Origin: Heterodontus francisci
Taxonomy: Eukaryota
Length of the DNA: 64,000 nt
Direction: 5' to 3'
Assembly: GCF_036365525.1 (NCBI RefSeq)
Contig: NC_090414.1
Location: 19,677,846 to 19,741,845 of the forward strand
Below the pieces are notes generated by a model. It saw only the letters and a list, made by a program, of their open reading frames with translations, was not told the DNA's origin and did no database searches. Of the stretch, positions 51 through 61,999 are shown one piece after another; positions within the stretch are counted from its first letter, which is position 1, and the number at the start of each line of letters is the position of its first letter. The translations under genes were made by a program, and so were the position numbers.

Positions 51-1958
51 CTGCCAATGGTGAAGGATCGCGGAGTGGCGACACCTTGGCGGGGACCAGT
101 TTGGAGCCACCTCCTGCTGGATCGATCCCAGGATTTCCCTTCTTTCCTCCCTTCCCATCAGCTCCTTGGGTGGGAATGCCACCTCCTCCGTTTGGTAAGT
201 ATGGATGCAGTTTGAGGGTCTTGGTGTGATCGATTTATTAGCATACGCCTGTCCTCCTCCTCCCGTTTATTGGGACTCTGTCGTGTTTAGCCCGCTGGCT
301 GTGTGGAGGGGAGCCAGCCCCCCGTGGAACTGTATCCCAGCAAGGACTGGCACATCGGGGAGAGGAGGAAATAAAATTGGAGCGGCTGGGGGAGGTTTGG
401 GCGTTACAGATATAATTGGAATCCCTCAAGTTGTTGCCCCTTTTTGTTTATTTTTCTGCTCTAGGAATGCCCCCAATGCCGATGCCACCTTCGGGCTTTG
501 CAGGACTGACGGAAGAGGAGCTGCGAGCGATGGAAGGACAGGAGCGGCAGAACCTGGAAGCACGGCTCCAGTGTCTTCAGAACATTCACACCCTGCTGGA
601 CGCGGCCATGGTCCAGATTCACCAGTACCTCTCGGTCGTCGCTACACTCAGGTAGGCTGAGCTGTTGCGAGGCTCAATCACCCAGCAAACCAGGCCAGGT
701 TTTACTGTCCTTGTGCAAAGTTACCACTGAAAGGGTCGTCGCTCACCCGCCCCTCCACTGGGTCAGTTAATATATGCTGGCAAGTGTAAAATTCAAACCA
801 GAAGCATCTGGTTTTTCTCCCTAGCCTCTGCGGACTACACAGAATCATAAACTTTTACAGCATAGAAGGAGGCCATTCTGCCCATCAGTACTCTACCCTG
901 TTTCTGAAAGAGCCTTGCCTTTGCCCCATTCAGCTCTGAAAGAGCTGTTTTCTTAATCCCTCATCCCACTGGATAGGAATTTCCAAGATTGGGCTGACAT
1001 ATGATGCCCTCCACAGTCTTTCAGCCTCACCGTCGCTCAATGTCCGGGCTCACACTTTGGTCCAGGGTCTGAGGACAACCAGCATCCGGGTTTGGAGGAC
1101 GCCGGGGACCCTCGTGAAGGAAATTTTAAAGAATAGGTTTTTGAAGGGGACTGACTTTGCTCCTTTTCTCTAGTCCCCCCAGGCCAACGACAACCGCGAG
1201 TTCGGCACCGAGCACAGAGTCTGCGGATCTGGCATCTGGGTCACAGATGGATTCAACGGGAGACTCTCCTCCTGCAGCCGACAGCACCTCTACACAGCCT
1301 CTCTCGCAACCCGAGGAAATAGGTACCAGTTTCCACATAATGTTGGTGGGGAAGTTGGAGACCGGGTGTGGGGGCTCCAGTTTAGCATTCTTCGAGGAGG
1401 TGACTGATTATGTTGGGTTGGGGGGGAAACACAGTGGATGTGATGTATGTGGACTTTCAGAACACCTCTGACCAGTTTTCCACACAGGAAACGATTAGAA
1501 GCATTAAGGCCTGGGGAAATGGGATCAAGGTAACTAACAGTTTAAAAGGATGGAGAGAATTCCCTGTAATTTGTGAATGCTGGTGTGTCCAGGACAGCTG
1601 TTCCCTCGTTTCAAAGGACCGAGTTACAAGGACATTGTAACTCCACTGAACGCGGAAGCCCCTCATCCTGGTCTATAAGGTGCCTCGGTGGGGTGGGGGG
1701 GAAGGTTTGAGGGAAGCGAGAAATTCTCCTTAGTCCTGTACTTTTATACCTTTCGCGGTGGTAGCTTGGGTGAAGGGCTGAAACTGGTCTTCTTTGACGT
1801 TTGCAGGGCAGAGCGATCTGGAAGGTGCAGTGGGATACTCCATACCCGACTTGGCTGATCTCCCAGACGACGAGAAAGGCTTGCTTAGCGAGCCGGACGC
1901 CGCAGAACTGCGCCGACGGCGGCTGCGGAAACTCGACTTGCCCAGTGCCCAACACTGA
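51..1958 (+). CDS. SYVN1: E3 ubiquitin ligase synoviolin/HRD1, last four coding exons (5' part of gene lies outside the window)
   Basis: Exons 51-194, 465-651, 1174-1322 and 1807-1958 have GT-AG ends and consistent phases. Translation includes PGFPFFPP..WVGMPPPPF-GMPPMPMPPSGFAGLTEEELRAMEGQERQNLEARLQCLQNIHTLLDAAMVQIHQYL and ends EPDAAELRRRRLRKLDLPSAQH*, matching the vertebrate SYVN1 C-terminus. Confidence 0.96.
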
Positions 1959-9519: not shown

Positions 9520-10090
9520 CTCCTCCTCTCCACCCCTCCCTCTCGCTCAGCAGTTTCCGGTTCCGGTGCCTCAGAGGATGGTGACGGGAGTGATGGAGGC
9601 GGCGGAGAATCCGTGGTCGGAGCCGAAGCTGAATCCGCCGGCATCGGCTCCATCGGGCGGTGAGTGAGCGCGGTCCTGTCACCGATCGAGAGAAAAGGAG
9701 CGGTCCGGTTGAAAAGCGCCGATATTATTTAACGGAGAGGGAGGTGGACGAGATTGGTCGCCGACGCCGCGACCGGATCAAACGGGCGCCCCCGCCTCCT
9801 TGGGGTTTCCGATGACGGGTGGGGATGGTTGAGTGGGTGGGTGGGGGAATGGACGCCGGCTTATTGTGAGGTGAGAGCAGGGGGGAAGAGACTGAGGGAC
9901 GTCGTCTACCATCACTATCCTTGAATTTACTCTCCCTGGTTCCGAGATGCGGGGAAACACCGCAAATAATGGCGCCGACGACCGGCCTTTGCGGAGCCGC
10001 TGTGCGCAGGCGCAGAGACCAGATTTTTCTTTGGGGGGGGGGGGGTGGAGGAGAGAAAAGACCCGGATGGGAACCCGGAAGTAACATCCA
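9520..10090. promoter_or_regulatory. CpG island / promoter of the PRPF39-like gene
   Basis: CpG-dense stretch with tandem TTCCGG (ETS) at 9555-9566, ATTGG at 9753, YY1-like AATAATGGCGCC at 9965, NRF1-like TGCGCAGGCGCA at 10003 and CCGGAAGT at 10075. Confidence 0.75.
9578..9659 (+). CDS. PRPF39-like exon 1 (putative start)
   Basis: AGGATGG Kozak context inside the CpG island; [27 protein letters not shown]; donor CG|GTGAGT in phase 1, matching the phase-1 acceptor at 18942. Confidence 0.7.
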
Positions 10091-13000: not shown

Positions 13001-16000
13001 CTCTCAAAACTAAAAATATGACTCTTAAACCATGGCCGGCAAAGCATCAGTTTTCTGTGTACATCAGGGATTGTGTCCTTGTGAGGGGCGGGGAAGGGGT
13101 TGAGTTCAAGTCTCGGGGACCGAACCACCTGTTCGAAAAGGAGCAAAATTTAACTGGAAACTGGCTTGAGATTTCTATGTCGGAGCAAACAAATTAGAAT
13201 TGGGAACTGCTTGTTTTGAAAGTAGTCCCATTTCAAATGACTTGCACTGTCTGCCTTTTAGTTAATGGGACCGGCTAGTTCTTGAGGGAATGTGCAGATC
13301 TGGTACTTCTCCCAGAGCTGATGGGCCATGTTGTAGAGACGAATAATCCAGGATAAAGCTCTGAGTGATATATTAGGACCTGTGGTCTGAGGATAAAGCT
13401 CTGAGTGATATATTAGGACCCAGGGTCTGAGGATAAAGCTCTGAGTGATATATTAGGACCCAGGGTCTGAGGATAAAGCTCTGAGTGATATATTAGGACC
13501 CAGGGTCTGAGGATAAAGCTCTGAGTGATATATTAGGACCCAGGGTCTGAGGATAAAGCTCTGAGTGATATATTAGGACCTGTGGTCTGAGGATAAAGCT
13601 CTGAGTGATATATTAGGACCCAGGGTCTGAGGATAAAGCTCTGAGTGATATATTAGGACCCAGGGTCTGAGGATAAAGCTCTGAGTGATATATTAGGACC
13701 CAGGGTCTGAGGATAAAGCTCTGAGTGATATATTAGGACCCAGGGTCTGAGGATAAAGCTCTGAGTGATAGATTAGGACCAGGGTCTGAGGATAAAGCTC
13801 TGAGTGATATATTAGGACCCAGGGTCTGAGGATAAAGCTCTGAGTGGTATATTAGGACCTGTGGTCTGAGGATAAAGCTCTGAGTGATATATTAGGACTG
13901 TGGTCTGAGGATAAAGCTCTGAGTGATATATTAGGACCCAGGGTCTGAGGATAAAGCTCTGAGTGATATATTAGGACCCAGGGTCTGAGGATAAAGCTCT
14001 GAGTGATATATTAGGACCTGTGGTCTGAGGATAAAGCTCTGAGTGGTATATTAGGACCCAGGGTCTGAGGATAAAGCTCTGAGTGGTATATTAGGACCCA
14101 GGGTCTGAGGATAAAGCTCTGAGTGATATATTAGGACCCAGGGTCTGAGGATAAAGCTCTGAGTGATATATTAGGACCCAGGGTCTGAGGATAAAGCTCT
14201 GAGTGGTATATTAGGACCCAGGGTCTGAGGATAAGGCTCTGAGTGATATATTAGGACCTGTGGTCTGAGTATAAAGCTCTGAGTGATATATTAGGACCCA
14301 GGGTCTGAGGATAAAGCTCTGAGTGATATATTAGGACCTGTGGTCTGAGGATAAAGCTCTGAGTGGTATATTAGGACCTGTGGTCTGAGGATAAAGCTCT
14401 GAGTGGTATATTAGGACCCAGGGTCTGAGGATAAAGCTCTGAGTGGTATATTAGGACCCAGGGTCTGAGGATAAAGCTCTGAGTGATATATTAGGACCTG
14501 TGGTCTGAGGATAAAGCTCTGAGTGGTATATTAGGACCCAGGGTCTGAGGATAAAGCTCTGAGTGATATATTAGGACCCAGGGTCTGAGGATAAAGCTCT
14601 GAGTGATATATTAGGACCCAGGGTCTGAGGATAAAGCTCTGAGTGGTATATTAGGACCCAGGGTCTGAGGATAAGGCTCTGAGTGATATATTAGGACCTG
14701 TGGTCTGAGTATAAAGCTCTGAGTGATATATTAGGACCCAGGGTCTGAGGATAAAGCTCTGAGTGATATATTAGGACCTGTGGTCTGAGGATAAAGCTCT
14801 GAGTGGTATATTAGGACCTGTGGTCTGAGGATAAAGCTCTGAGTGGTATATTAGGACCCAGGGTCTGAGGATAAAGCTCTGAGTGATATATTAGGACCCA
14901 GGGTCTGAGGATAAAGCTCTGAGTGATATATTAGGACCCAGGGTCTGAGGATAAGGCTCTGAGTGATATATTGGGACCTGTGGTCTGAGGATAAAGCTTT
15001 GAGTGGTATATTAGGACCCAAGTTCTGAGGATAAGGCTCTGAGTGATATATTAGGACCCAGGGTCTGAGGATAAGGCTCTGAGTGATATATTAGGACCCA
15101 GGGTCTGAGGATAAAGTCTGAGTGATATATTAGGACCAGGGTCTGAGGATAAGGCTCTGAGTGATATATTAGGACCCAGGGTCTGAGGATAAAGCTCTGA
15201 GTGATATATTAGGACCTGTGGTCTGAGGATAAAGCTCTGAGTGATATATTAGGACCAGGGTCTGAGGATAAAGCTCTGAGTGATATATTAGGACCAGGGT
15301 CTGAGGATAAAGCTCTGTGTGATAGATTAGCACACAGTTGGAAGGTGTCATTGACAGTGCTATTGAGTGTTACTTAGACAGCAAGAACCTGTTCATCGAT
15401 GCTCAGTTTGGGTGCTGCTCGGGGGCCACTCAGTTCCAGACCTCATTACAGCCTTGGTCCAAACACAGATTTTTTTTTTAAATGCTGAATTCCAGAGGTG
15501 AGTTGGGAGTGACCACCCTTAACACCAAGGCAGAATTTGACTGAGTGTCACTGGGTCAGAATGGTGGAACTCTCTCCCTAACAGCATCAAGAAGGCAGCT
15601 CACCACCACCATCGAAGGTCAGTTTGGGATTGGCAATAAATGCTGGCTTTTCCAGTGACACCCACGTCCCAAGAACAAATTAAAAAAAAAGCACACCCCA
15701 GACTATTTCTGTCCTTCCCTGTCACTGTTGACCGTTCTCCCTATTGCTTTCAGTGCTCCCCACTCATCACAGCAAACAAGACAAAAGAACAGCACAGGAA
15801 CAGGCCATTCGGCCCTCCAAGCCTGCGCCAATCTTGATGCTAACACCTTCTGCACTTCCAGGGCCCATATCCCTCTATTCCCTTCCTATTCATGTATTTG
15901 TCAAGATGTCTGTTAAACGTCGCTATCGTATCTGCTTCCACCACCTCCCCCGACAGCAAGTTCCAGGCATTCACCACCATCAGCAGTTTCAATGTCTGCC

Positions 16001-19000
16001 AGTAATGCTTCTTTCCCTCCATCTCCACTGGATTACTATTCTGTCCTGGTCTGCTGTGCACTTAATTTATGTTTCCTTTAATTTTTCTCCCAAAATCGTG
16101 GACTTGACAAATTGGAGGAGGGCAAATCTCGAATTGGTTGATGTAAAGCCTGAGTCAGTGAGGGAGCAGCCCTTTCCACCCATGACCCTTTTCCAATCTG
16201 CCAGGCTCACAAAAAGCTGGTGTGACTGGAAGAGATGTGAGGGGGTTGGGGGGGGATGCGGTGGGTGCTCACCACCCCTGTGCTCCTGGGAGGGAGTCAA
16301 GTTGATAGGTTGTTTAGTTTGGTTAGGGGGTGTGACAGTCTGGTGGTAACTCCTCGACCCCGAGTGTCCTTGGAAGAGAGCTCACTGGGCGTGCAGTGAA
16401 ACTTTTCTGTCGTTTAAGTAAGTGGGCACAGGAATTAAAGCGTGGCATTGCAGAGTCTGACCTGACCGAAGGGATGTGATGCCCTAACATTGGGATTGGA
16501 CTGTCATGGTGCATCAGTTTGAAACTGCTCAGTCCCTGAATACAATGGGGCTTTCAGTTAGTATGTGGCAATGTGGAGAGGTTGTCCCTTTGAAGGAACT
16601 ATGTTTGTGCTGTCCAGGGACTGAAACGTACTCGGAGTTGGGCTCCATGAGCCATGCGTACTGGGCAGATCTGAGAATTGACTCCTCTCTCCTCTGAGTC
16701 AGTTGATTTTAGTTGGGCTGATGATGATGTTACAGCTGCTTTCAGTGCCCCTCTGGATTAAGATGGGGTGGGGAAGTCCTACAGTGTTCCTAGGCCTGAG
16801 TGGTATCAGGAAACTCCTGTTGGGGGGCGGTGGGGTTGTGCGTGTGAGTGAGTGAGTGTTAGTGGGTTACATGAGGTTACATGAGGCTGTGTAGTGATGC
16901 TTCCCAAGGTGAGTAACCTGACGCTCGCAGCACTCGTACGAGCAGCAGGGCCACTGGGCAGTCAGTATCTGTGGGAGTGTAGCCTGGCGGAGAGTTTGCC
17001 CTGTGGGCTGGCAGTGAAATACTTTGGAATGAATGTATTCCCTGCGCTGTTTCGATCAATAGGAGAGTTTTGTGGCAGTTTGATTAAAGTGCACAATATC
17101 GTGTTCATCAAAATCTTCACTTGCAGAAGCTGCTCATTGTGCTGAAAATCTGATGCTCACAATTCCAAGGCATACTTATGCCCGAATCTTGAGAGCCAGC
17201 CACTTGTTCAGAGTCTGTATGCTCTCTTGGTCGATGAAATGCTTCGTTGTCTGTTAGCAGTACCCCGTGCCCTGCGGCGTTCTGTGAACGCTGATACAAA
17301 GCTGGCTCAGTAATTTCCCTGAAAGCAGATGGACAGTCGAAGGGGGAGAATGCTGATGTGACCCGGGAGTTCAGCAAAGTGTACCAGTGCTTTATGTGTA
17401 CATCTCTGAGCTGTCCTTTTATACTTGGCTTGTGTTTTGTGCTTAACCGTGTCAGCCTTGGCTCAGTTGGTAATGCTCTCGTCTCTGAGTCACACAATTC
17501 CAGATTCAGGTCCCACTCGGGGAATTGAGCACTAAAATCCAGGCTGACACTCCAGTGCGGTATTCGGTCCGCCTGCCCCAGGTGGGCATTTAAAAAAACA
17601 AAAAAACAAAATCCCTTGGCACTATTTCGAAGAAGAACGGGGGAGTTATCCCCGGTGTCCTGGCCAATATTTTATCCCTCAGACAACATCACAAAAACAG
17701 ACTTGTGTTGCTGTTTGTGGGAGCTTGCTGTGCGCAAATTGGCCGAGCATTTCTGACATTGCAACAGCGACTGCACTTCAGAAAGTACTTCATTGATTGT
17801 AAAGCGCTTTGGGGCATTTTGAGGTCCTGAAAAGCCCTATAGAAATGCAAGTACTGCTAGTTACATCCCTGTCACTAAAGGCCATGTTTTTGAGGTGATG
17901 AATTAAGGGAATTGGCCAGTCCGATACAGTACATTCGAGAAAACAATCTTCTGCTAGTAATTGGTAACAAAAAGATTGAGCTTCCCTGATGCTGCAGGCA
18001 GCCTAAACTGCAAAAGCTCGACTTCCAATTGTTAAATAAACAGGACCTTCTGCCGTTTCAAACTTGTAACGATTTTTCCAGGGCTTCTTTGGAGATTGGA
18101 ATGTGTTTCAGTTTCTGACTCCCTCGCAGCATTTTCATAACTGGCTGTTGATTGTTTTTTTTTTCATCCGTAACAAAGTTTGACAAAGCAATGCAAGTCT
18201 GCCTATGTAGTTGTGCTATTTTTAATGTGTTGTTTAATTTAGTTTAATGTCATTCAAAACTCTGCTGCCCGTGTCCTAACTCTCTCCAAGTCCCGTTCAC
18301 CGATCTCCTCTTTGCTCGCTGACCCACGTTGGCTCCCATTTAAGCAATGCCACGTTTTTTTTTGTTAAAAGAAAATTCGTCTTTGTTTTCACGTGCCCTC
18401 GTCCCTCCCTATCTCTGTGATCTCCTCCAGTTTAACAGTCCACACTCGAGACCTGTGCACTCCGCTAATTCTGGCATTTTGAGCATTGCAGATTTTAATC
18501 GTTCTACCATTGGCAGCCGTACCTTCTGCTACCTGGGCCCTAAGCTCCTGAATTCTCTTCCTAACCCTCTCTACCGCTCTCTCCTTTAAAACGCTCCTTA
18601 AAACCTCCCTTTTTGATCAAGCTTTTGGCCATCTGTTTTAATATCTCCTTATATGGCTTGGTGTCAGATGTTCGATAAGGCTTAGAAAGCCCCTTAGGCT
18701 GTTTAATTATGTTGAAGGAGCTTTATAGATGCAAGTTATTGTTGGCGTATCTACATCATTTTCCCCTGGTAGATGTTAGGCGTATACACTGAATGGAATA
18801 TCCTCCCATATTTCCCTTCCAAATACAGCCTGTCCTCATTGTCAGCGGAGACAAGCTCTCCTATTGTTTCTCACCAGTATAAACTGTGGTAGTTCCAGGT
18901 GTTTGTGAGTTACCTGTTCTGCCTCTTTCTTTTGTTCGCAGGTGGTGACCAGAAGTTATTCAACAAAGAAAGTCTGGATGGGAGCAATCAGTGCATGGTG

Positions 19001-22000
19001 CAGACTGTGTCCGCAGACTCGCTTGGCTTACATGGTGATCAGAACGTAGTAGAGGAGGCCTCTGCCGACTGTTCGAGCCCGTGTGATGGGGACACTGGAG
19101 AGGAATCAACAGCAGACACTCCGGGCCCAAGTGATGGGGACAGTGGTGAGGACTCGGCAGCTGATTCCACGGGCCCAAATGATGACACCGGAGAGGAGTC
19201 AGCAGTTGATTCCACTGGCCCAAGTGACGGAGACACTGGAGAGGAGTCAGCAGCAGATTCCACTGGCGCAAATGATGGGGCCACTGGTGAGGAGTCTGCA
19301 GCGGATTCTACAGGGCCAAACAATGAGGACACTGGAGAGGAATCCGCAGCAGATTCCACCGGCCCAAGTGATGGAGACACTGGAGAGGAGTCAGCAGCTG
19401 ATAGCCCTGACTCATGTGATAAGGACACTTTATTGGACACAGCAGCTGATTCCACTGGCCCAAGTGACGGAGACATTAGAGAGGAAACGGCTGCTGGTAG
19501 CCCTGGTCCGTGTGACGGAGACACTGTATGGGAGGCGCCGGCTGGTAGCCCTGGTCCGTGTGACGGAGACACTGTAGAGGAGCAGCCTTCTGGTAGCCCT
19601 GGTCCATGTGACGGAGACACTGTAGAGGAGCCGCCTTCTGGTAGCCCTGGTCCATGTGACGGAGACACTGTAGAGGAGCCGCCTTCTGGTAGCCCTGGTC
19701 CATGTGACGGAGACACTGTAGAGGAGCCGCCTTCTGGTAGCCCTGGTCCATGTGACGGAGACACTGTAGAGGAGCCGCCTTCTGGTAGCCCTGGTCCGTG
19801 TGACGGAGACACTGTAGAGGAGCCGCCTTCTGGTAGCCCTGGTCCGTGTGACGGAGACACTGTAGAGGAGCCGCCTTCTGGTAGCCCTGGTCCGTGTGAC
19901 GGAGACACTGTAGAGGAGCCGCCTTCTGGTAGCCCTGGTCCGTGTGACGGAGACACTGTAGAGGAGCCGCCTTCTGGTAGCCCTGGCCCATGTGATGAGG
20001 ACACTGTAGAGGAGATGGCTGTTGATAGTCCGAGCCTGTGTGACGGAAACAATGTAGAGAAATCAGCTGCTGCTAGTCCAAGTCCATCCTGTGTTCAGAG
20101 CACAGCAGAAGAACCGGCTAAAAGTCCTAACCTGCCTTGTGAGCAGGGCACTGTGGCAGAGATGGAAATTGATGGGCCGAACGCGGACAAAGATTCGATA
20201 GAAGAATCAGCTACTGAGTCCCCTAACCTGGGTGCTGGTCAGGATACAGTAGAAGAACTGGCTGCCAATTCTTCAAGCCTGCCATTGTCCAGTGGTGTGA
20301 CGGTACAGGGGGCAGTGACACAATTCCCAGAAAGCTCCAATGGGTCAGAGCAAACGGTAGACAAAGCATTGGCCAACTCTGATGGTGCAGACTACGCTGC
20401 AACAGAGGGCACCACTGCCAGTCTAGATGAGTATGGGCAGGGCAGCAGTGAGTACGGGGTCATAGACTCCGAGGACAGTATCCCGCCGTATCCAGTGGAC
20501 TTCGAGAAATACTGGAAGATTGTGGAGGATAATCCGTACGATTTCACGGGATGGACTTATGTGCTGCAGTACGTGGAGCAAGAGGTGAGGCTCCAAGTAA
20601 CTGGGGCATCAGCTGTGCTGATGCGCCTCCTATATCCCTGTTTCCACCCAGCCTGTTTCTCTGCCCCCTGATCCTAGTGCGTCCCTGTCTACTTGGTCTC
20701 TGTAACCCAGTGTGCGTCTGCATTTCTGGCTGTTTACAGATGTCACTGTGGTAGTAAGATAGACTAGGGCCTCCTCCGTGGCTTTCCCCCCCCTGTCCCT
20801 AGTGTGGGATGCCAAGGCCAAATAATGCTCCCCTGCAGCTGTTTCAACAACACTCCTACAGTGTAACACCTTCTGTGCAGTCAAGTGTTCCAAAGCAAAA
20901 GGGTGACACCAGAGTAACTGGACACTGAGCAGGGACGGGAGAAGGTGCTCGGCTTTTGACTGAAGTCAAGTTCGAAGTTTCGAGGAAGCTTTCGAAGGAA
21001 GACGTTTAGGGAGAGCCTTTCAGAAGCTGAGGCCACTGGAAGTCAGGCGGAGGGAGGGGGCTGAGGGGTAGTGGTGGGCAGTTTCAAAGAGCTCCAGGGT
21101 TGGAATGATTTTGACTGTTGGAGCACAGAGTTGCAGAGAGGAGGCCAGCAAGGGGACCGGTAGAGAAGGATTTTGAAATTGATGTGTTGTGGGAAGATGG
21201 GGGGGCCACTGAAGGCTTGTGAGGGTGGGGAATGGGCCTTCCTGTGTTTTGAAGGTTATTAAAGACAGAAATGGGGAGGTCAGCGAGGAGAGCAATGGGG
21301 TAATTAGACTCTGAATGTGACAGCGGCAGCGTAAACATTATTGGGGGGGACATAGGGATCGAGGCGGCTGATGATGTGGAGGTGGAAATTCGTCTTGGGC
21401 TGGATGTGGGATTGGCTCTGAATGAGGTCGGGCTCAGATTGACTGAGCAGCCAGGGCGAGGGAAGGTACTGTGCATTAAGGTGTGAAGTTTTGGGCAGAG
21501 GGCAAGCAGGATGAGGAGGAGGGAAGCTCAGCGAGGTTACGGTTTGATCAAGTGCAGTGCTGGTGATGTGGTGGGTCAGCGGAGGCCCTATGGCTTGGGG
21601 TAGGGGTGTGTGTAGTGGATGAAAAGATAATGCCATGGGGTGGGATAGCAGGGGGGCATGCAGCTGAATGGTTGGGTAGAGTTATGGGAAACATGCATTT
21701 GAGGGGGGGAAATTCTCTGGACATCTAGCCTGATTTGGGGGGAGGGGTGCGGAATAGATCCCTGAGCTGCATTTTTAGTGAGCTGGGAGGCTCCTTTTGT
21801 GGTGCACTTCCAGCTGGGTGAGAGGGTGGAACACAACACCGCAGAATAACATGTATTAGCACTCAGTAGGTCTTGGGTTCAAGCCCATCTCCAGAGACTT
21901 GAGCGCAAGATCCAGGCCGGCATTCCCAGTGCCAGTGCTGAGGGAGTGCTGCACTGTCGGAGGTGCTGTCTTTCAGATGAGGTGTTAAACTGAGGCCCCC

Positions 22001-25000
22001 TCAGGTAGGTGTGAAAGATCCCGTTTTAAGGAGGTGTAAGGGAGTTCTCCACACGTATCCTGGCCAGTGTTTTTCCCTCAACCAGTATCACTAACTGCGA
22101 ACTCTGTTCCCCTTATGTCAGTGGCACAGTACTGTGGTGCAGCCAGAGCCCACCCACCCTGCTTTTCCATCTCTCTGTGACAGTCTGGCTCACAGGAAAC
22201 TAGCAACACGTTAGGGTACTGCAACCTATCGTTTCCCTGCTCACTGAGCCGTCCCTGCTGGGGCTGAGGCACTAGGCAGCAACGGTGCTGTTTTGCAGTT
22301 CCGCTCCAATGGGCCCCCTGCGGCTGCCGTGTGAAGCTTGGCTCACCCTCCTTCCCTTCCCTTCAGCGAGAAAAGGAGAGGTTGCAGCACAAAATCCCAC
22401 CCTAGTCAGACGGGTCAGGCTGAGAGTGGTATCCCAGGCAGCCCAGATCAGCAAGACTGGCAGTGCCAGATGGGGGGGGAGGGAGGGTCTGACCCTTTGC
22501 CCGTTAGGTGAGTACTACTGGTCTGGCATAGGGAAGTGTTTCTCTGGGTGCATTATGGGGACTGAGCTGCGCCGGTCTGATAAATCTTATCTCCTTTCAG
22601 AATCACATCTGGGCTGTCCGGAAAGCGTTTGATGCGTTCTTTGCCCGCTACCCTTACTGTTATGGTTACTGGAAGAAATACGCTGACATAGAAAAGCGCT
22701 TGGGGTTTACCAAAGAGGCCGAGGAGGTGAGGCAGCGAAGCTGGGAGCTTTGGGCTTCAGTTTCCTTTTGAATTGTTTAAGCTGACTTACTGATGTTGCT
22801 GGTATTTGATCGGGGGGTGGGCGTGATCTGGCTGATAAGTTCCCTCGAATTTTCTTAACCGTTATAATACAGCACAGTCGGCGGGCTCGTTTTGACTGTT
22901 GGCGTCAGCTTGTGAGAGGAGAGTTGTTCTTGCACCAGTGCACTTCGCGTGATATGCTCGTGTTTTATTTTTCTGCTTGTCAACATAGAGATACAGTAGC
23001 CTCGAAGTTGACAGTGTCGAGGAAGGCTGTTTGGCCCGTTGTGTGTGGGTGGGTGCGTGCGCGTGCTGGCCCTTTGTTTTCCCTCCTCTCTCTCCCCAGA
23101 ACCCTGTATCTGCTGTGTCCAAATATTTTTCTGCTCTTTGCGATCTCTCTGCTCCTCTAATTCTGGCCCCTCAAACAACCCCAATTTTAATGCTGCACCG
23201 TTGGTGCCTGCACCTTCAGTTGCCTAGACCCCAAGTCCTGGAATACCCTCCCTAAAGCTCTCCATCTCGCTTTCCTCCTTTAAGACGCTCCTTTTGGTCA
23301 TCTAATCGAATATCTCCTTATGTGGCTTGGTGTCATGTTTTATAGTGCCCCTGTGAAGTCCATTTTATCATAAATCTAAGTTATTGTTAAAGGGATGCGG
23401 CAGTTTCAGCCTCAACAATTCCCTGTGACAAAGCATTTCAAGCTCCAGTCAGACCTTTTAAATTGATGACTGCTTAGTACTGACTCCCCAAGATAAGGGC
23501 TGTCAGTGCAGGGAAATGGAGCTCTTTTTCATTGGTACTGACTGCCCCATCAAATACTCCCAGGGCAGGTACAGCATGGGGTTAGATACAGAGTAAAGCT
23601 CCCTCTACACTGTCCCCATCAAACACTCCCAGGACAGGTACAGCACGGGGTTAGATACAGAGTAAAGCTCCCTCTACACTGTCCCCATCAAACACTCCCA
23701 GGGCAGGTATAACACGGGGTTAGATACAGAGTAAAGCTCCCTCTACACTGTCCCCATCAAACACTCCCAGGACAGGTACAGCACGGGGTTAGATACAGAG
23801 TAAAGCTCCCTCTACACTGTCCCCATCAAACACTCCCAGGGCAGGTATAACACTGGATTAGATACCTGGTGCCTAAGATCCCAAGTCTCAGAAGCATCAC
23901 GTTTCTCCCATTTGCTACTGACATGTTCTAACACCTACAGTGTGCTGTTTTTCTGCTGCAGGTTTACCAGCGAGGGCTCCAGTCCATCCCACTCAGTGTC
24001 GATCTGTGGGTTCATTACATCACTTTCCTGCAGGAGATCCTTGAAACCACCAACCCTGAAACTCCCGTTAAACTCCGGAGGTGAGCCTGAAATATCTGGC
24101 GTTGGAATGGCCGGGGAAGGGGGCGCTCATGTCCAGTGTGCAAACCTAAGTTGCTGTTGGTTTTCTAACCAAGGCTGAGGCTGTTTAGTGTCCTTTTTAA
24201 ACTGTAGCTTTCAAAAGGGAATTGAGTAATTACCTGAAGATAGAGATTTGCAGGACTGCAGGGAAAAGGCAGGGGATTGGAACTGAGTGAGTAGCTCTTA
24301 CAGAGAGCTGGCACAGACATGATGGGCCAAATGGCTGCCTCCTGTACTGTAGCCATTCTATGATCCCAACCTACTCACAATATCCCTCTCCCCAGAAATG
24401 CATCTGATTGTCCCTTTAACCGCAATTATACTGTCTGTTTCACTGTCTCCCCTTATATCCCATTCATAGAAACATAGAAAATAGGAGCAGGAGTAGGCCA
24501 TTCGGCCCTTCGAGCCTGCTCCGCCATTCATTATGATCATGGCTGATCATCCAACTCAGTAACCTGTTCCCGCTTTCGCCCCATATCCTTTCGCCCCAAG
24601 AGCTATATCTCACTCCTTCTTGAAAACATACAATGTTTTGGCCTCACCTGCTTTCTGTGGTAGCGAATTCCACAGGCTCACCACTCTCTGGATGAAGACA
24701 TTTCTCTTCATCTCAGTCCTGAAAGGTTTACTCCGTATCCTTAGACTATGACCCCTGGTTCTGGACTCCCCCACCATCGGGAACATCCTTCCTGCATCTA
24801 CCCTGTCAAGTCCTGTTTAAAATTTTATAGGTTTCTATGAGATCCCCCCTCACTCTTCTGAATTCCAGCGAATATAATCCTAACCGACTCAATCTCTCCT
24901 CATACGTCAGTCCCACCATCCCAGGAATCAGTCTGGACTCCCACTATAGCAAGAAGATCCTTCCTCAAAGAAGGAGACCAAAAGTGCACACAATATTCCA

Positions 25001-28000
25001 GGTGTGGCCTCACCAAGGCACTGTATAATTGCAGCAAGATATCCCTGCTCCTGTACTCGAATCCTCTCGCTATGAAGGCCAACATAGCATTTGCCTTTTT
25101 TACCACCTGTTGCACCTGCATGCTTACCTTTAGTGACTGGTGTACGAGAACACCCAGGTCTCGCTGCATATTCCCCTCTCTCAGTTTATAGCCATTCAGA
25201 TAATAATCTGCCTTCCTGTTTTTGCTACCAAAGTGGATAACCTCACATTTATCCACATTATACTGCATCTGCCATGCATTAGCCCACCCACTCAACTTGT
25301 CCAAATCACCCTGAAGCCTCTCTGCATCCTCCTCACAACTCACCCTCCCACCCAGTTTTGTGTCATCTGCAAATTTGGAGATATTGCATTTAGTTCCCTC
25401 ATCTAAATCATTAATATATATTGTATGTTTAATAGCTGGGGTCCTAGCACCGATCCCTGTGGTGCCCCACTAGTCACTGCCTGCCATTCGGGAAAAGACC
25501 TGTTTATCCCTACTGTTTGTTTCCTGTCCACCAACCAATTTTCTATCCCTTGCAATACACTCACCCCCAATCCCATGCGCTTTAATTATACATGCTAATC
25601 TCTTAAGTGGGACTTTGTCGAAAGCCTTCAGAAAGTCCAAACAAATCACATCCCCCTCATCAACTCTACTAGTTACATCCTCGAAGAACTCTAGTAGATT
25701 TGTCAAGCATGATTTCCCTTTCGTAAATCCATGCTGATTCTGCCCGATTCTACCACTGTTCTCCAAGTGCTCTGCTATAAAATCTTTTATAATGGACTCT
25801 AATGGATTCCACAGCTTGAAAACCCTGACACCCCACTTGGTTATTTTTAAAACTCTGCTCCCCTGGGATTTGAAACCCTTCACCACGGTGAACTGTTTGC
25901 CTGAAGCAACTTTGCCGCACCTTTTGGAAAATTTCACCGGGTCTGTCTTCTCCAAAATAATCCAGGCCATCTTCCTTCACCTTCATTCGTGTCTCCTTTC
26001 AAGGGCCACGGTATATCTTTCCTAGGGTTAGTCGGTAGCACTCCCACCTCCTGAATCAGAAGGTTGTGGGTTCGAGCATCACTCAAGGACCTGCAGCCAT
26101 AAACCCAGCTGACACTCAAGTGCAGTACTGAGGGAATGCTGCTCGGTCAGGGGTGCCTGTTCAAGTGGATGTTGGAAGTTGTCCTGTTGTCTTGGCACCC
26201 ATCGACCTGCACCACCATAAACTGGTCATTCAACCCATCGCTGTTTGCGGGATCTTGCAGTGCCCAAAATGGCTGCTACGCCGCCACACGTCAGGGTAGA
26301 GGCCTGCGACCCGACCCAAACCTGACGGGACCCGATGACATGTCTCGGGTTCAGGTCGGGCCCATCTTTCAGGCTCCGGTCATGTCGGGTCGGGTCAGAC
26401 ACACACGGTAAGTGCTCTGCTGGTAAGTATTGAAATTAAAAAACTTACCTGAGTCTGCGCAGTGAGCGAGTGACGTCACTATGACGTCATCACGCATGCG
26501 CTGCAGCTTCTTGAAGGTTCTGCGTCAGGAAGGTAAGTAAACGGATGGTCGGGTCGAGTAGTGGCGGGTTCGAGGTAAAATCGGAGGGATTCGGGCCAGG
26601 TTGGGCTCTGACCTAAAGCAGGCCTCCACGTCAGGGTAATGCATTGCACGTGAAATTCTTTGAAACCTATCTAAGGGCTCTGTAATTACAGAAAAAAAGT
26701 ATGACCTCCATTTATTTGGACCTTTCACAACCTTAGAATGACCCAGGGTGCTTTAACAGCCAGTGAAGTACTTTTTAAAGTGAAGTCACTATTGTAATGT
26801 ATTGAAACACGACAGCCAATTTATGCACAGAAAGAGCCCAATGAGCAGATAAGCTGTTTTCTAGTGATGTTGGCTGAGGGATAAATACTGTCCCAGGTCC
26901 CCGGGGAAAACCCCCCCCTGCTCTTCTCATAAATAGTGGCCGTGGGATCTCTTGCATCCATCTGAGAGGGCAGATGAAGCCTCGGTTTTAATGTCTCAGA
27001 TGGCACCTGCGACATTGCAGCACTCCCTGAATACTGCCACTGGGAGTGTTGGCCTAGATATTGTGCTCAAGTCCCCAGGGTTGGGCTTGGACCCACTCTC
27101 GGAGGCGAGTGCAAGTGCTACCCACTGCACCATGGCAGGGAGGTGGGCATTCCCCTTTTATATAACAATCCTGTTTGAGATTATACTCCGAATAGCCTAC
27201 GTAAGGGAGATTTATTTTGGACTCTGTATCCTGTTCTGCTCTTGACTGTTGGTCTCTGCCATTGTGTTTTATCTGACGAGCAGTTCTTGTTTTTGCAGTG
27301 TGTTTGAAATGGCATTGGCTGCAGCTGGCACTGATTTCCGGTCTGACAGACTCTGGGACCTGTACGTGAACTGGGAAAAGGAGCAAGGGCAACTGAAGGC
27401 CATGACAGCTATTTATGACCGGGTGCTGTCGATACCCACCCAGTTGTACAGCCACCACTTTGAGAAGTGAGTGAAGGAAGTTTTTTTTTACACTTTGTGT
27501 GCAGTGCTTATAAAACTGGTTGTAGCTGACCTCGGAGGCCGAGTGGATAATAACACTGCCCAGCGCAGAGTCAGAGCCACTTTGATTATCTTAGATAATA
27601 TCATGCAGTGAAACAGCCCATTCGACCTGACAGGTTCATGATGCTCTTTTACTCTCCACATGCTCTTCCTCCCACCCTGCTTCATCTCGCTCCATCGAGA
27701 TGATCTTCTACTCCTTTCTCCCTCGTGTATTCATCCAGCTTCCCCTTAAAGGTCTCCACGTTAATCGCCTCCTCCACTCCCCGTGGTAGCGAGTTCCACA
27801 TTCTCACCATTCTCCGGATAAAGATGTTTCTCCTGGATTCCCGATTGGATTTATTAGCGGCTCTCATATACGTATGAACCCTGGTTTAGCTTTGTGCGTT
27901 TGGGAGCCCGCTCTTGGGGACATTGGAGCAATGGCAGCCAGGAAAAGATGCTCTAGTCCATCCAGCCCGTCCCACGCAACTGCGATACCTTGCGTATCAC

Positions 28001-31000
28001 AAAATATAAACTTAGCTGAAATCGTGGTCGACTGGGAGAGGGAAGAAAGCAGATTTAAAAAGCCCAGGCCAATTTGTTGAGCGGTGAAATCTGAGAAATT
28101 GCTCTCTGGCCCCTGTAGGTGATGGAAATCGTCCTAAATTCTATGCAGGTACCTGCCTTTTGTATAAGATGATCTCCCCCAGCCGGTTACCGGTTCAGTT
28201 CTCGTTTAAAGCTCTGAGCTGTTTAATGTTTAATGTTGAACTGTTTTCTAAAACCAAGGCGACAATGCCTGGGCCCTGCACCCAGGCTCTCAGATAAAAC
28301 AGCATTAGCCCTACAGGCCAGAAAGTTCTGGTTTCAGTTCTTAGTCTGTCTTGAGTTCGCCCAGAAGGCCATTGCGTTTTCAAAATGCATTCTCGCGATG
28401 TAGGCATCACTGGTAAAGCTGGCATTTATTGCCCATCCTTCGCTGTCCCGAGAAGGTGGTGGTGGGTTGCTGCCACCTTCTTGATCTGCTGCTGTATCGG
28501 TTTGATGCAACTGAGTGGAACACTCAGGGAAGTTGAAAGTCGGTTCGCATTGATGTGGGACTTTGAGTCACATACAGGGCTAGACCGGGCAAGGATGTCC
28601 GATTCCCTTCCCTAAGGGACATTGGCGAACCAGTTAGGTTGTTACGACAACTCAATGGTCTCTCTGCTGTTGAGCTGCGCGAGGTGCAAAATTGGCCGGG
28701 TGGCTTTCTGCTCCTGATCACGATCGACAGGCCCCTGCTTGCATGTCTGGTGAGGTCCAGCTTGGCTGTGATGCCCTCTGATAAGACTCACTGTCTCTGC
28801 TCTTGAGGAATGGCCACTTGAACAAGGTAGTGGAGGCCCCGTCGACCCTCACTGGTGAGATGGTATCAGAGTGAGAGCTCTTCCCCTTGAACAGCGTCTT
28901 TTCATTTGCATTTATGCAGCACTTCATGGTAAAATGTTCCAAGGCTGTTTACAGGAGCACTTCCCAAACAAAATTTGTCACGAGATGTTAGGACGGGTGA
29001 CCCAAAAGATTGGTCAAAGAGGTCGGTTTTAAGGAGAGGTTTAGGGAGGGAATTCCAGAGCTTAGGGCCCAGGAAGCTGAAGGCACGGCCGCCAATGGTG
29101 GAGCGATTAAAATCGGGGATGTGCAAGCGGGCCAAATTGGAGAAGTTCAGAGATCTCGGGTTTGTAAGGCTGAGGAAGGGGGCGTGGCCATGGAGGGATT
29201 TGAACATGAGGACAAGAATTTTCAAATGGAGGCATTGCCTGACTGCAAGTCAGTGTAGGTCATGGAGCACAAAGGGGTGATAGGTCAACAGGACTGAGTG
29301 CGAGTTAGGACACGGGGCAGCAGGAAGTGGGGGAAATTGGTGCTGAAGCAAAACGCTGAGTTTTGGACTGCCTCTTGCCAATGTAGCCCTGACCCCACAT
29401 TGTGACGGTTTCAACTAACCTGGAGCCAAGCTCTAACTGCAGGTTTCTCACTGTCCTGCAGGTTTAAGGACCATGTGCAGAATTACTCACCAAAGGACAT
29501 TCTGTCCACTGACGAGTTTCTCAAGCTGAGGTCAGAAGTCGTGACCAGCCTAACGGCGGCCGAAGCAGATTGTGACGAGGGTCCCCCCGGAGATGACCCT
29601 CCCCCGGGCGTGGGGACCACTGACCAAGAGAAGGTGACCCGTTAAGTCTTTTCTGCCTGAGAGTTGTTTAAGAATTGTGGCTGGCTCCTTTACCTCACTC
29701 ACTCCATCCCCCAGATGGCTTAGTTAGTAAAGGCAATATGTAACTGCACCCTTAAAGGGCCCTCATGTTTGTCTAAGGACTGATATCATGGAGTCGATTA
29801 CAGCATAGGAGGCCATTCAGCCCATCGAGTAGTCCAAGCTCCCTCTGCACAAAAAAAAATTTGTTAAAATGGGGTTAGATACAGAGTAAAGCTCCCTCTA
29901 AGCTGACCCCATTAAACACTCCCAGGACAGGTACAGCTGGATACAGAGTAAAGCTCCCTCTACAGCTCTTTGAGAAGCAACCAGTCAGTTCCACTCCCCA
30001 CTCGAACCCTGTAGCCCTGCATGTTTCTTTCCCTCAAGTGGCCATCCGATTCCCTCTTGAATCCATTGATCATCTCCGCTCCACCTCCCTTGTGGGCAGC
30101 GAGTTCCAGGTCATTACCACTCACTGTGTAAAAAAAAAAGTTCTTCCTTGTATTCCCCTGCATCCCTTGTCCAAAGCCATCAATCTGTGTTCCCTAGTCC
30201 TTGTACCATTTGTTTATGGGAACAGTTTTTTCTTATCTAACTTATCGAAGCCTGTCATAATCTTGTACACCTCAATTAAATCTCCCCTCAATCTCCTTTT
30301 GTTCTAAGGAGAACAAACCCCAGCTTTTTAACCTAACCTTGTAGCTAAAATCCCCCATCCCTGGAACCCTTCTGGTAAATCTCCTCTGCACTCTCTCAAG
30401 GACCCTCACATCCTTCCTAAAGTGTGGTGACCAGAACAGGACACAATACTCCAGTTGGGGGCCAAACCAGAGCTTTATAAATGTTCAGCATAACTTCCCT
30501 GCTTTTATACTCGATACCTCTATTTATGAAGTCCAAAATCCCATATGCTTTGCTAACCACCATCTCAATATGTCCTGCCACCTTCAAAGATCGATGCACA
30601 TGCACCTCCAGGTCCCTCTGCCTTTCCCTTCTGCCAAATCTGTTAGCCCTTTGTGCTCAGTCTCAGGCTGGCGGGCAGAATCAGCCAGTTCTGATTGCTA
30701 ACCTGTTACCCACTGCTGGAAAGTAGACATGAATGTGCGGTGAGGGCAGGATCAGTGTTGATTTGTTATGTCCCGCCCCCCCCCCCCCCCCCCCCCCACC
30801 ATGATAGCCGGCCTTGGATTGCAGATGAGGAGTTGTCACTTGGCGAACATTTGACACTCCGATTTTCGCACAAGGAGAGTTGCTGCATGTATAAAATGGT
30901 CACCATAGCTCTGGTTTATCTCTGAGTTACAGTCGCAGATAAAGTAGCCAGTTTTGGAAGGTTGAGGATGTCCTGACTCCTGGGGCTGTGCTGTGACCAT

Positions 31001-34000
31001 TAACTTCCCTCGCTTGTGTTCAGTTTGCTCCTTATCAACTTACTCCTTATGGAGTGTTGGTTCTGCGGAAACTTCCCATTTCAGGCACACAGCACCATGA
31101 TTAATTACTCCCCCGGCACAGGTACAGCACAGGGTTAGATACAGAGTAAAACTCCCTCTACACTGTCCCCATCAAACACTCCCAGGACAGGTACAGCATG
31201 GGGGTTAGATACAGAGTAAAGCTCCCTCTACACTGTCCCCATCAAACACTCCCAGGACAGGTACAGCACAGGGTTAGATACAGAGTAAAGCTCCCTCTAC
31301 ACTGTCCCCATCAAACACTCCCAGGACTGGTACAGCACGGGGTTAGATACAGAGTAAAGCTCCCTCTACACTGTCCCCATCAAACACTCCCAGGACAGGT
31401 ACAGTACGGGGGTTAGATACAGAGTAAAGCTCCCTCTACACTGTCCCCGTCAAACACTCCCAGGACAGGTACGGCTGGATACAGAGTAAAGCTCCCTCTA
31501 CAGCACACCAATGCTGTGATTGAACCCCAGCCTTGAATGAACTTTGCAAATCTTACATTTCTTGTTATGCTTTTCTGTGGATTCTTCAGCTACATTAACT
31601 AAACTTCGGGGAGTGACGGGGATCTGCTGGTGAGGAGGGCGGGGGTAGGGTGGGAAGCTTTGTGCCATGATCTCATGCACTGGGATAGAAGTGACTGACT
31701 GCAGCACTCCATAGATACATGTTGCAGTGGGTGTGATGCTGGGACATTGAGGGCTCTTTGCCAGCTTTATTTATATACCTGCCATTTTGGGAGACTGTGC
31801 GCCTTTGAGTTCCAGTTCCCTTCGCTGACTTTCGTTTCTTTCCCACTGCCACGTCTCAGGCTGACACGGAGCTGGAGAAGATCCGAGCGCACCTAGCGGC
31901 CAGTCGGCACGAGATGTACCTACTGAACGAGGAGGAAGTCAGCAAGAGGTGGAATTTCGAGGAGGCGGTAAGGATGAAGCTGAGCCCCACTGACTGACGT
32001 GTGTTATATAACCTGCTTTCCAGCCCCCATTCCACTGTCATAAAATTGGAGCAATAGTACTGAGGAAGTGCTGCATTGTCAGAGGTGCCACCTTTCAGAC
32101 ATATTATACTCGGGGGCCCTGTCTACATGATCAAGATGTCCACAATCCTATGGCATTATTTTGAGAAGAGTGGGGGATGTTAGGACAGCTGACCAAAAGT
32201 TTGACGAATAATAGAAGTTTTAAGGAGCATCGTCGGGGAGGTGAGCGAAATGGGGAAGTTTAGGAAGGGAATCCCGGAGCTTAGGGACGAGGTAGTTGCA
32301 GTCGGATCCACCAGTGGAAATCAGGATGTGCAAGAGATCTTGGTCCCTCCATCCTGACTTTCACTCAGTTTGTCACCTATGATTTTTTTTTTCTTTTTGT
32401 CGCCCTCTCCTCAGATTAAGAGGCCGTACTTCCACGTCAAGCCCCTCGAACGAGTGCAGCTGAAAAACTGGAAGGACTACCTGGATTTCGAGATTGCCAG
32501 TGGCACTAACGAGCGGGTTCTGGTATTGTTCGAGCGCTGCATGATCGCCTGTGCTCTGTACGAAGACTTCTGGATCAAGGTGAACCCCCCCTTCTCGGAA
32601 GCTCCTGCCAGGATGCAGATCCCGGCTCTCCTGCCGATCTCTCCTGATCGGCGGCTTCTCGTTTTTTTTTTTTCTTTAATTTTGTGTTTGTTGATTTCTT
32701 TTGCAAGCGTTCCAACAAAAAAGAATTTCACGTTTTACTTTGATGATCTGACTTCTAACATAATCTTTTAATTCCATTGCTGTTTTATCTGCACGTGTTG
32801 CTTCAAACTAAAGAAGTTAAGGGATTGCTGAAGAAATGTGTAAGCGTGTTATCACTGTGAGTGCCCCCTCCAGTTCTCAATAAGCTGTACCATGATGTCT
32901 TTTTATTTTTTAACACGGCGCCGTGGCGTCGGAGCAAGTTGATCTTGTTTCCCTTCATCCCTTTCTGACCTCCCTCTGTCCACAGTATGCCAAGTACCTG
33001 GAGAACCACAGCGTTGAGGGGGTCCGTAATGTCTTCCAGCGGGCCTGCATGGTCCACCTGCCCAAGAAGCCCACCCTGCACCTGCTGTGGGCCGCCTTTG
33101 AGGAACAGCAAGGTAAGGAGGTCCCGGTCGCTTGCTCGCACGCACACACTCACGCACCTCCTGCCCTGTATGGGTGGCAGTCAGCGCGGTGGGGGGGGAA
33201 AGGGAAACCGTGAAATGAATTGGCCGTTAAAAGCATCTTAAGCCTTTGAATCCCATTGGCTGCAACGCTTTACAGGGTCGGCCCTGTCCAGTTAGAAATC
33301 CCACTGGGGCAAAGGCACAGTTTGGACAATCTTTACACAGCGCTTTATCGTACCCCTCAGAAACATCCCCAGCACTTCTACTCTTCGAAGTAGATTGAGG
33401 GGGTTCTAGATTGCTGAGCTGCAGTAGCGTACTGGTTACGGGACTGGACTCTGACGCAAAAGCAGAGCAAATTGTGCAACTGGCCTCAACAAGCGTGGCA
33501 GTTATTGAGCCGGCACCGCAGAAGCTGCAAATTGTCGCAAAAACGCACTTGATTCAGTGATGTCCTCCAGCTGTTCAGTTGTTAAAATTCGGGTGACCCA
33601 GGGTAGGGGGTGGCCAATAAAATGCGCCTTCGCCAGCATTGTCCACAGCTATAATTTTTGTTGTGCAGCAGCGCCTACGGCACAGGGCTTGGTTTAACGT
33701 CTCGGCCAAAGAATGATGCATGTGCCGACACCGCGCTGGTGTGCCAGCCGGGGTGCTGGTTACAGACCATTCGTCCCAGATCTGCCTAACTAAATTTGGA
33801 GCTGGGCTGTTCATTCTGAGGTGACGGATAATTTATATTTGGCTATGTGGGGGGAGAGTTGACAATTGCTGGTGTTCAGTGACCATGCAGCTGGTTGGAT
33901 TGTCGTAAAAGCTCATTTGGTTTAGTAACGTGCTTTCAGAAAGGAAACCTATTTGAGACTCTGGTCCCACATCAACGTGATTAGCACTTAACTGCTCTCT

Positions 34001-58455: not shown

Positions 58456-58774
58456 CTTCCAGCCACAAGTACAGAAACCCGGAACTGCAATCATTTTCTT
58501 AAAGGGGAGGGGAGGGGATCTCAGGGGAACTGCCTTTTCCTCATCTGACATTCATTTGCAGAACAAGGGGGGGACTCACTCACATTCACTCCCTCATGTG
58601 CAACGGAACTGTTTAATCCTATTTGCAAATGTTATTTTTTGTTTGCATCTGAGTCACATGCAGCCCTTTCCTGGGTTGCTGCCAGCATCAACCCAAGCAG
58701 ATGAGCTTGTCGTTTGTCTCATTTGAAGTGTTAGCCTTGGCTCAGAGGTTTAGCACTCCTGCCTCTGTGCCCAT

Positions 58775-60865: not shown

Positions 60866-60959
60866 ATGGGATCTTTAATCCCCCATGCCTGAGGGGGAAG
60901 TCGAGGGCCTCAGTCTAACATCTCATCCAAAAGACAACTTTGACAGTTGCCCCTCCAAG

Positions 60960-61712: not shown

Positions 61713-61999
61713 TTTAACAATTAATTTACAAAAGCATTCAAAGAAAAGGAAAATTGACATTTTGTTTTAAGTGCGCATTTAAATTCTTCTCCTGGTTTTC
61801 TTGATCTGTATCAATGACCTAGACCTGGGTGTGCAGGGCACAGTTTCAAGATTTGCAATGACACAAAACCTGGAAGTATTGTGAACTGTGAGGAGGATAG
61901 TGATAGACTTCAGCTCTTGGAGAAGAGTAAATTGCTGGGCTACAGGTGGCCGTGGTGGGGGTGGGGAGGAGCCCTGAGCTGCCTCCTGTCAATCACCCT

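Follow-up and report, generated by a model that had tools for sequence, protein, structure and literature searches.

The gene and its second exon

The window analysed here is a 64,000-nucleotide stretch of the Heterodontus francisci genome (assembly GCF_036365525.1, contig NC_090414.1, positions 19,677,846 to 19,741,845 of the forward strand) containing a gene of the PRPF39 splicing factor family, the second coding exon of which carries a long in-frame array of a 48-bp repeat encoding most of an acidic N-terminal tail. A protein model from the same species (P0001, 1151 amino acids (aa), labelled PRPF39-like at its source) is identical to the window exons and maps exactly onto 14 coding exons between 9578 and 41896, the ends of exons 3-14 being placed to within 2-3 nt where codons are split. 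The coding exons are as follows.

9578-9659, plus strand: coding exon 1, ATG, 27 codons and 1 nt (82 coding nt), GT donor at 9660
18942-20584, plus strand: coding exon 2, 1643 nt, acceptor AG at 18940-18941 behind a pyrimidine tract, GT donor at 20585
About 22601-22729, 23965-24078, 27297-27467, 29463-29633, 31860-31967 and 32415-32579, plus strand: coding exons 3-8
About 32986-33114, 37291-37557, 38715-38900, 40136-40210, 41136-41288 and 41834-41896, plus strand: coding exons 9-14

Exons 3-14 encode HAT-N, linker, HAT-C and the C-terminal tail, as placed by the mapping of P0001 and by matches to the Pfam families HAT_PRP39_N (PF23240, 269 bits against a cut-off of 27.7) and HAT_PRP39_C (PF23241, 245 bits against a cut-off of 33). 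The predicted HAT part superposes on the mouse structure 6g70 with a template modelling (TM) score of 0.96 and a root-mean-square deviation of 1.9, although the predictor may have learnt 6g70. Taking the dimer-interface residues of PRPF39 from the available part of its structural description (PMC6582350), R458, R464, E576 and D577 are kept in 15 of 15 aligned proteins, with Tyr536 replaced by Phe in all 12 rows of the paralog described below and Arg456 by Leu in all nine shark and ray rows. With both HAT domains, the mouse fold and the dimer residues in place, the assignment to the PRPF39 family in an earlier note on this DNA was confirmed. Mouse PRPF39 is a dimer with its N-terminal 73 residues unresolved, and an alternative exon inducing nonsense-mediated decay has been described for PRPF39 in the same source (PMC6582350, seen in part). 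As far as the accessible text of PMC9808567 describes it, human PRPF39 favours the use of weak 5′ splice sites and has U1C and GC-rich RNA as its binding partners. By analogy, the HAT part of the window protein would be expected to dimerise and to aid the U1 small nuclear ribonucleoprotein (snRNP) at weak 5′ splice sites.

The 48-bp repeat array

One reading frame of exon 2 has no stop in 547 codons while the other two have 20 and 59, and exon 1, an exact match to P0001 residues 1-27, joins it in frame at a predicted junction. Tandem Repeats Finder reported a period of 48 across 19083-20043. With units cut from the protein in register, and the decayed layer checked on the DNA against the unit consensus with 1000 shuffles, the array comprises 25 units of 16 aa in three layers, all unit lengths being multiples of 3 nt. 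The parts of the exon are listed below.

19073-19498, plus strand: 5′ layer, 9 diverged units, Cys in 2
19403-19498, plus strand: landmark units, the last two of the 5′ layer, recognisable one-to-one in several other sharks
19499-20026, plus strand: middle layer, 11 units, Cys in all 11
19595-19978, plus strand: youngest block, 8 protein-identical units of two DNA types, 4 then 4
20027-20269, plus strand: 3′ layer, 5 decayed units, Cys in 3, z 4.1-10.3 (DNA against shuffles)
20270-20488, plus strand: non-repetitive remainder of the acidic tail
20489-20584, plus strand: start of the folded HAT region, matching mouse PRPF39 6g70 at E 4e-8, with a predicted local distance difference test (pLDDT) above 90 past residue 540

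Four segments tested beyond 20269 gave z of 0-2.2 against the unit consensus. Read in this way, the exon specifies 515 residues of acidic tail, with 124 Asp and Glu, 8 Lys and Arg and 18 Cys, followed by the 32 residues that open the HAT region. The single open frame of the 1643-nt exon, its three age layers of a 16-aa unit (9, 11 and 5 units), the eight identical units split four and four at a synonymous codon (the two DNA types are one silent base apart) and the preservation of frame had all been claimed from the letters alone, and each holds. The claimed tail length of about 500 aa holds for the exon 2 part, the full tail being about 542 aa with the 28 residues added by exon 1. As a unit of tens of bases repeated head to tail, in frame and within a spliced exon, the array is a coding minisatellite.

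The open frame exceeds chance, since simulated neutral divergence rarely leaves it stop-free: of 20,000 runs, 1.9% left the 13 distinct 48-nt units without a stop, and for the 179 codons outside the array p is about 0.0003. A search of the shark genome for the 48-bp unit gave one candidate region, at this locus, and none elsewhere (a lower bound). A dispersed or mobile repeat was rejected because the unit was found at this locus only, while a 351-aa open frame on the minus strand was set aside as a shadow of the repeat. A Cornifin match (39 bits, over the cut-off) on the white-shark tail was read as a reflection of composition and period rather than homology, the window tail, unlike that of the white shark, having no Cornifin match in Pfam.

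Transcript evidence

Contigs from four sequencing runs, representing two organisms and three studies, were compared with 20030-23400. The runs of organism A come from one sample, possibly related to the source of the annotation, and all were taken as RNA on the guess of the tool, no RNA record being listed, with the exact removal of an intron fitting RNA. In each of the four runs a single contig runs without gaps from 20030 or 20048 to the donor of exon 2 and is joined to exon 3, removing a GT..AG intron of 2016 nt. The array exon is transcribed in its 3′ part. The contigs reach 72-91 letters further 5′, which would bring them into the end of the near-identical block provided that they are collinear there, and 0.84-0.87 of the sampled words were present in the four runs (the stretch is 94% exon). 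The in-frame AGs inside exon 2 are preceded by 6-11 pyrimidines in 19 positions as against 16 of 19 at the true acceptor, and since the exon runs from phase 1 to phase 0 its skipping would shift the frame and remove the first HAT residues.

It is scarcely credible, then, that the array is in part an artefact, with the mRNA entering exon 2 downstream of the repeats or the unit count reflecting an error of assembly. The read evidence covers the 3′ part and the database proteins are gene models, so that whole-exon inclusion is drawn from the 3′ contigs, the word shares, the exon phase and those models. Against an artefact stand the unbroken contigs from at least 20030/20048 to the donor, the high word shares, the weak internal AGs, the frame shift on skipping and the coding-type constraint on the units described below. 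Entry near 20450, named in the earlier note as one of two observations that would overturn its claim, was not seen, no such joint being listed in the contigs of the four runs, which show presence and not absence; exon 2 is spliced to exon 3.

A second PRPF39 gene of jawed vertebrates

The shark genome contains another PRPF39 gene (G000:C9:39403500-39452500, model P0076) whose tail is an ordinary one of 124 aa, encoded in an exon without tandem repeats. The two copies were placed in a tree of 48 rows of the HAT region, chosen from 121 proteins to span taxa, inferred by a quick IQ-TREE run with Shimodaira-Hasegawa-like approximate likelihood ratio (SH-aLRT) support and no bootstrap, and rooted on lamprey and hagfish. 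The window protein falls in a clade of 22 rows (SH-aLRT 98) with ray, coelacanth, axolotl, turtle, bird and squamate 'PRPF39-like' proteins, while the C9 gene falls in a clade of 24 rows (SH-aLRT 100) with chimaera, ray-finned fish, amphibians, reptiles, birds and mammals. Among 106 other listed matches, the survey having covered the best 120 of 1322, 38 are closer to the paralog, none of them labelled mammal or ray-finned fish.

Gene order separates the two copies likewise. The upstream neighbour of the window gene is SYVN1, recognised by one exon:

416-655, plus strand: late coding exon of SYVN1 (synoviolin), phmmer match to human synoviolin 8kes at E 1e-25

FKBP3 adjoins the C9 copy. A search for the FKBP family listed 20 matches without one at the C9 locus, and the gene was recognised in the DNA next to that copy. 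We take FKBP3 to lie beside PRPF39 in human gene order as well. Because it sits in a separate clade and beside SYVN1 rather than FKBP3, the window gene is, on this sequence evidence, a second jawed-vertebrate PRPF39 paralog and not the orthologue of human PRPF39, neither grouping with the mammalian proteins nor adjoining FKBP3. The comparison with human PRPF39 as its counterpart, made in the earlier note, therefore fails, a normal PRPF39 with a 124-aa tail being present in the same genome. The databases already annotate the paralog as PRPF39-like.

Four turtle proteins of the PRPF39-like cluster (P0142, P0143, P0147 and P0150) bear the source name 'E3 ubiquitin-protein ligase synoviolin isoform', likely a misnaming from adjacent or read-through gene models, which suggests that the turtle paralog occupies the same locus beside SYVN1. 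Human SYVN1 and PRPF39-FKBP3 lie, we assume, at 11q13 and 14q21, regions paired by the early vertebrate genome doubling, and the paralog pair may have arisen in that doubling. Rfam gave no matches in the window or in seven C9 loci (134 kb), and the intronic small nucleolar RNA that we presume for human PRPF39 was accordingly unusable as a marker. Pfam returned no family for five of five downstream open reading frames, leaving the downstream neighbour unnamed. No literature on the array or the paralog was found in a search with most subscription papers and supplements outside its scope, and tables of genome-doubling duplicates (ohnologs) in such supplements may list the paralog.

The array in sharks and rays

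All nine proteins longer than 958 aa that match the last 48 residues of the exon are from sharks or rays. A profile of the unit (control, 0 in 200 shuffles each) found 15-35 units in eight of eight sharks and none in 12 of 12 other tails; among rays it found four units in sawfish, two in one skate and none in three others. Units similar to the 5′ layer of the window are present in sawfish and skate, and the array is probably older than the split of sharks and rays and decayed in the latter. Tails of 497-824 aa were found in 13 of 13 shark species retrieved, cluster members included, and that all 13 arrays are in frame is a biased count, as frameshifted arrays would be missing from protein databases.

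The array has grown differently in different lineages. Relative to the landmark units, expansion lies 5′ in the white shark, 3′ in the window species and on both sides in catsharks, each with its own endings, and the unit ending PPSG of the youngest block is absent from the units listed for the seven other sharks compared. The sawshark has units of 18 residues with the core kept. Among five carpet shark species, four have a tail of 502 aa and the fifth has one that is a unit longer. The earlier note took the array to be probably length-polymorphic, which stays conjectural; in the one comparison within a species, two assemblies of a bamboo shark, whose units are diverged, are identical over the 502-residue tail. 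Copy number would drift by unequal crossover or slippage among near-identical neighbours and become frozen once these have diverged.

Long tails outside these fishes arose separately. Conger and eel proteins of the canonical clade have tails of 408-432 aa with a different repeat, rich in Gln, Asp and Glu, at -0.21 charges per residue, while in the axolotl paralog the tail reaches 868 aa without repeats, at -0.08 per residue (P0099, P0103 and P0104, axolotl included). As a separate observation, a motif ME-I/T/V-D within a decayed unit (window 20123-20173) can be aligned across sharks and rays, is retained by the sharks and by most of the rays whose array is gone, and is a candidate linear motif.

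Charge and disorder of the tail

The claim that the tail is polyanionic and disordered agrees with the charge count and with an AlphaFold2 prediction (83 sequences), in which nearly all of residues 1-536 have pLDDT below 50 and no secondary structure. Net tail charge is -118 for the window protein, -15 for lemur and -21 for the canonical copy of the shark. Per residue, the median charge is -0.21 in eight shark tails (-0.17 to -0.25 across 13 shark species), -0.20 in 22 canonical PRPF39 tails (median length 95 aa), -0.14 in 11 non-elasmobranch paralog tails and -0.10 in four rays. The acidity of the tail is the usual charge density of the PRPF39 family and not a new feature. The longest Asp/Glu run is three residues. 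The tail holds 19 S/T-P and 40 S/T-x-x-D/E motifs, which we take to be kinase motifs, giving 59 candidate phosphosites. No Pfam family exceeded its cut-off on the window tail, and a search of the ESM Atlas with residues 60-420 gave no usable look-alike, a result uninformative either way.

Selection on the units

Among the 13 distinct window units the ratio of replacement to silent differences (pN/pS) is 0.54 (bootstrap 0.36-0.80), an approximate value as unit pairs are not independent, with 0.39 for codons 1-8 and 0.75 for codons 9-16; silent divergence is higher in the core (0.57 versus 0.37). Between the decayed part and organism B there are three replacement changes in 337 sites and three silent changes in 104. 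In a protein alignment of five carpet sharks (with one duplicated unit omitted to maintain register), variable columns number 26 of 282 in the array, 16 of 70 in the tail before it, 43 of 150 in the tail after it and 18 of 535 in the HAT region, a pattern that could partly be due to gene conversion. Core positions 1-6 vary in one of 72 columns and positions 7-16 in 18 of 120 (Fisher p 0.002). The carpet-shark array is frozen, with the SPGPCD core almost invariant. Over 138 distinct in-register units, changes are spread unevenly among the unit positions (p 1e-5 to 0.016), with Asp6 and Asp8 changing least (7 and 11 against about 19-21 expected), while a test of charge by type of substitution gave no clear-cut result. 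Taken together the units are under moderate purifying selection.

These data bear on two alternative accounts of the array. In the first, which is possible but unlikely, the tail is tolerated filler, grown by a repeat-prone small chromosome on a partly redundant paralog, with selection removing only stops, frameshifts and sticky residues. This would accommodate tail lengths that range so widely among the 13 sharks and near loss in rays, the canonical PRPF39 in the same genome, the unrelated long tails of axolotl and eels, and the several other arrays in the 64-kb window. It would also be in keeping with accounts, in the portions of these sources available, that simple tandem repeats are more abundant on the short chromosomes of sharks (bioRxiv 10.1101/2022.10.17.512540) and that repeat-driven frame-keeping indels are common in long disorder-encoding exons (PMC12457776). 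It fits less well with an array more conserved than the flanking non-repetitive tail in five carpet sharks, with variation that avoids the core, with a core pN/pS of 0.39 at high silent divergence, which speaks against plain homogenisation, and with the uneven changes over unit positions.

The conserved core could instead suggest a multivalent docking array, in which each S-P-G-P-C-D-x-D core serves as a short linear motif, such as a proline-directed phosphosite recognised by a phospho-binding protein, and copy number sets avidity for a partner. Core positions 1-5, 7 and 8 are unchanged in 12 orthologous units of the five carpet sharks, 12 of 13 window units have Ser at position 1, encoded by AGY in some and by TCN in others, and the core is retained in the 18-residue units of the sawshark. 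We nevertheless consider such an array improbable: no partner has been identified, neither Pfam nor the ESM Atlas offered a relative, the 5′ layer has ST in place of SP, Mustelus has SPRPSDNG, and the array was lost in rays.

Cysteines

The suggestion that the tail carries one Cys per unit did not survive the count, Cys being present in 16 of 25 window units (2 of 9, 11 of 11 and 3 of 5 by layer). A redox or metal sensor, in which regularly spaced Cys, with acids beside them, would switch the protein by binding metal or forming disulfides, had also been proposed in the earlier note and is now most improbable. Shark tails hold 10-35 Cys as against a median of none in canonical tails, and none of 12 Cys columns varies in carpet sharks. 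Yet Cys is not conserved beyond its neighbours, changing at the expected rate (18 changes against 17.5-19.3 expected in 138 distinct units), and Mustelus, the units of which have drifted to SPRPSDNG, retains it in only 4 of 15. Metallothionein-like metal-binding proteins have dense, clustered and invariant Cys in CxC and CxxC patterns; the shark tail differs in having 18 Cys in 515 residues, those of the array 16 residues apart with neither CxC nor CxxC.

A proposed role for the tail

The account we tentatively prefer, at somewhat short of an even chance, is that the tail is the acidic disordered tail of the PRPF39 family scaled up, likely tuning the contacts of the HAT domains with RNA electrostatically. 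In-frame duplication of 48 bp would have enlarged the acidic tail of the paralog about five-fold in sharks. The disordered tail would then act as a cloud of negative charge, tunable by phosphorylation, that damps or tunes the binding of RNA and partners by the HAT dimer; both phosphorylation of the S/T-P and S/T-x-x-D/E sites and the electrostatic effect are hypothetical. An RNA mimic and a phospho-array, two further roles suggested in the earlier note, would also be possible. Selection would retain the frame, the charge and the S-P-G-P-C-D-x-D core, leaving length free. Acidic disordered regions can autoinhibit nucleic-acid binding and speed target search, according to the part of PMC10250230 available.

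Several points weigh against this role and keep it below an even chance, chiefly the loss in rays, the net negative charge of the HAT region and the lack of experiment. Rays have 0-4 recognisable units and a weaker charge (-0.10) with the HAT domain conserved, which together with the axolotl tail at -0.08 shows that neither array nor charge is required in the paralog. The HAT region, too, has a negative net charge (-16), disfavouring intramolecular binding, and Asp/Glu runs do not exceed three residues, unlike tails of the HMGB1 type. Changes of Glu to Lys or Arg occur (six species-level events), and the supporting measures of selection are qualified by the dependence among unit pairs and, for the carpet sharks, by the use of proteins only. 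We know of no experiment on any PRPF39 tail.

A further idea, decidedly speculative, is that the paralog, overlooked in most jawed vertebrates other than mammals, pairs with canonical PRPF39 and so re-invents the yeast Prp39/Prp42 heterodimer, with the copy number of a selected, multivalent phospho-array in sharks setting the strength of U1 snRNP recruitment to weak 5′ splice sites.

Other features of the window

Further repeats were noted in the window. Intron 1 contains a 40-bp minisatellite (13350-15337, about 50 copies, 94% alike), and a 69-bp unit forms two intronic arrays of about five copies each (23541-23865 and 31118-31472). At 59318-61713 a 33-bp unit lies in two opposed arrays (about 47 and about 23 copies) separated by 85 bp, a large inverted repeat whose unit resembles a dispersed repeat near 21930-21990. 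Broken reverse-transcriptase-like fragments (24862-26025, 52093-54460 and 58750-59112), which we take to be of the long interspersed nuclear element type, lie within introns and in the DNA downstream. On the minus strand, 55552-55881 contains a hydrophobic open frame of 109 aa that resembles an exon of a membrane protein, and we would liken it to TMEM179B, although Pfam gave no match.

Comparison with known systems and significance

The window protein shares with mammalian PRPF39 (6G70) the HAT-N/linker/HAT-C fold, the charged dimer residues and an equal tail charge density; an exon boundary after the first HAT helices is common to the window gene and the canonical PRPF39 of the shark. It differs from mammalian PRPF39, at about 58% identity, in that the latter belongs to the other clade with FKBP3 as its neighbour and has a tail of 73-75 aa rather than about 542.

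Growth of disorder by repeats in long internal exons is a described and common process, of which the shark tail is a large example. As in the exons described in the part of PMC12457776 consulted, a long internal exon has undergone tandem expansion with the frame kept and disorder encoded; the shark array differs in its 25 units and 1.2 kb, in its persistence across sharks with remnants in rays, in its unit-by-unit stasis in one shark order and in its conserved core. With the D/E repeat of HMGB1, going by the same limited portion of PMC10250230, it shares a large negative charge and a disordered tail on a nucleic-acid-binding protein, but its longest run is three residues, its charge is spread among Ser, Gly and Pro, and autoinhibition is putative. 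The yeast Prp39/Prp42 heterodimer likewise comprises two paralogous HAT proteins in one genome, metazoans being described as using a PRPF39 homodimer (PMC6582350, part seen). The vertebrate duplication is independent of that in yeast and much younger, and a heterodimer is hypothetical.

If the tail works through its charge, sharks and rays would provide a natural series from 0 to 35 units, frozen in carpet sharks and still growing in horn, cat and mackerel sharks, in which to test what selection keeps in a disordered region, whether length, charge or motif. If it is filler, it would be one more coding minisatellite in a repeat-rich genome. The second PRPF39 clade, found in sharks, rays, coelacanth, axolotl, turtles, birds and squamates with its dimer interface intact, may matter more to splicing specialists; in the structural literature, metazoan PRPF39 figures as a single homodimer.

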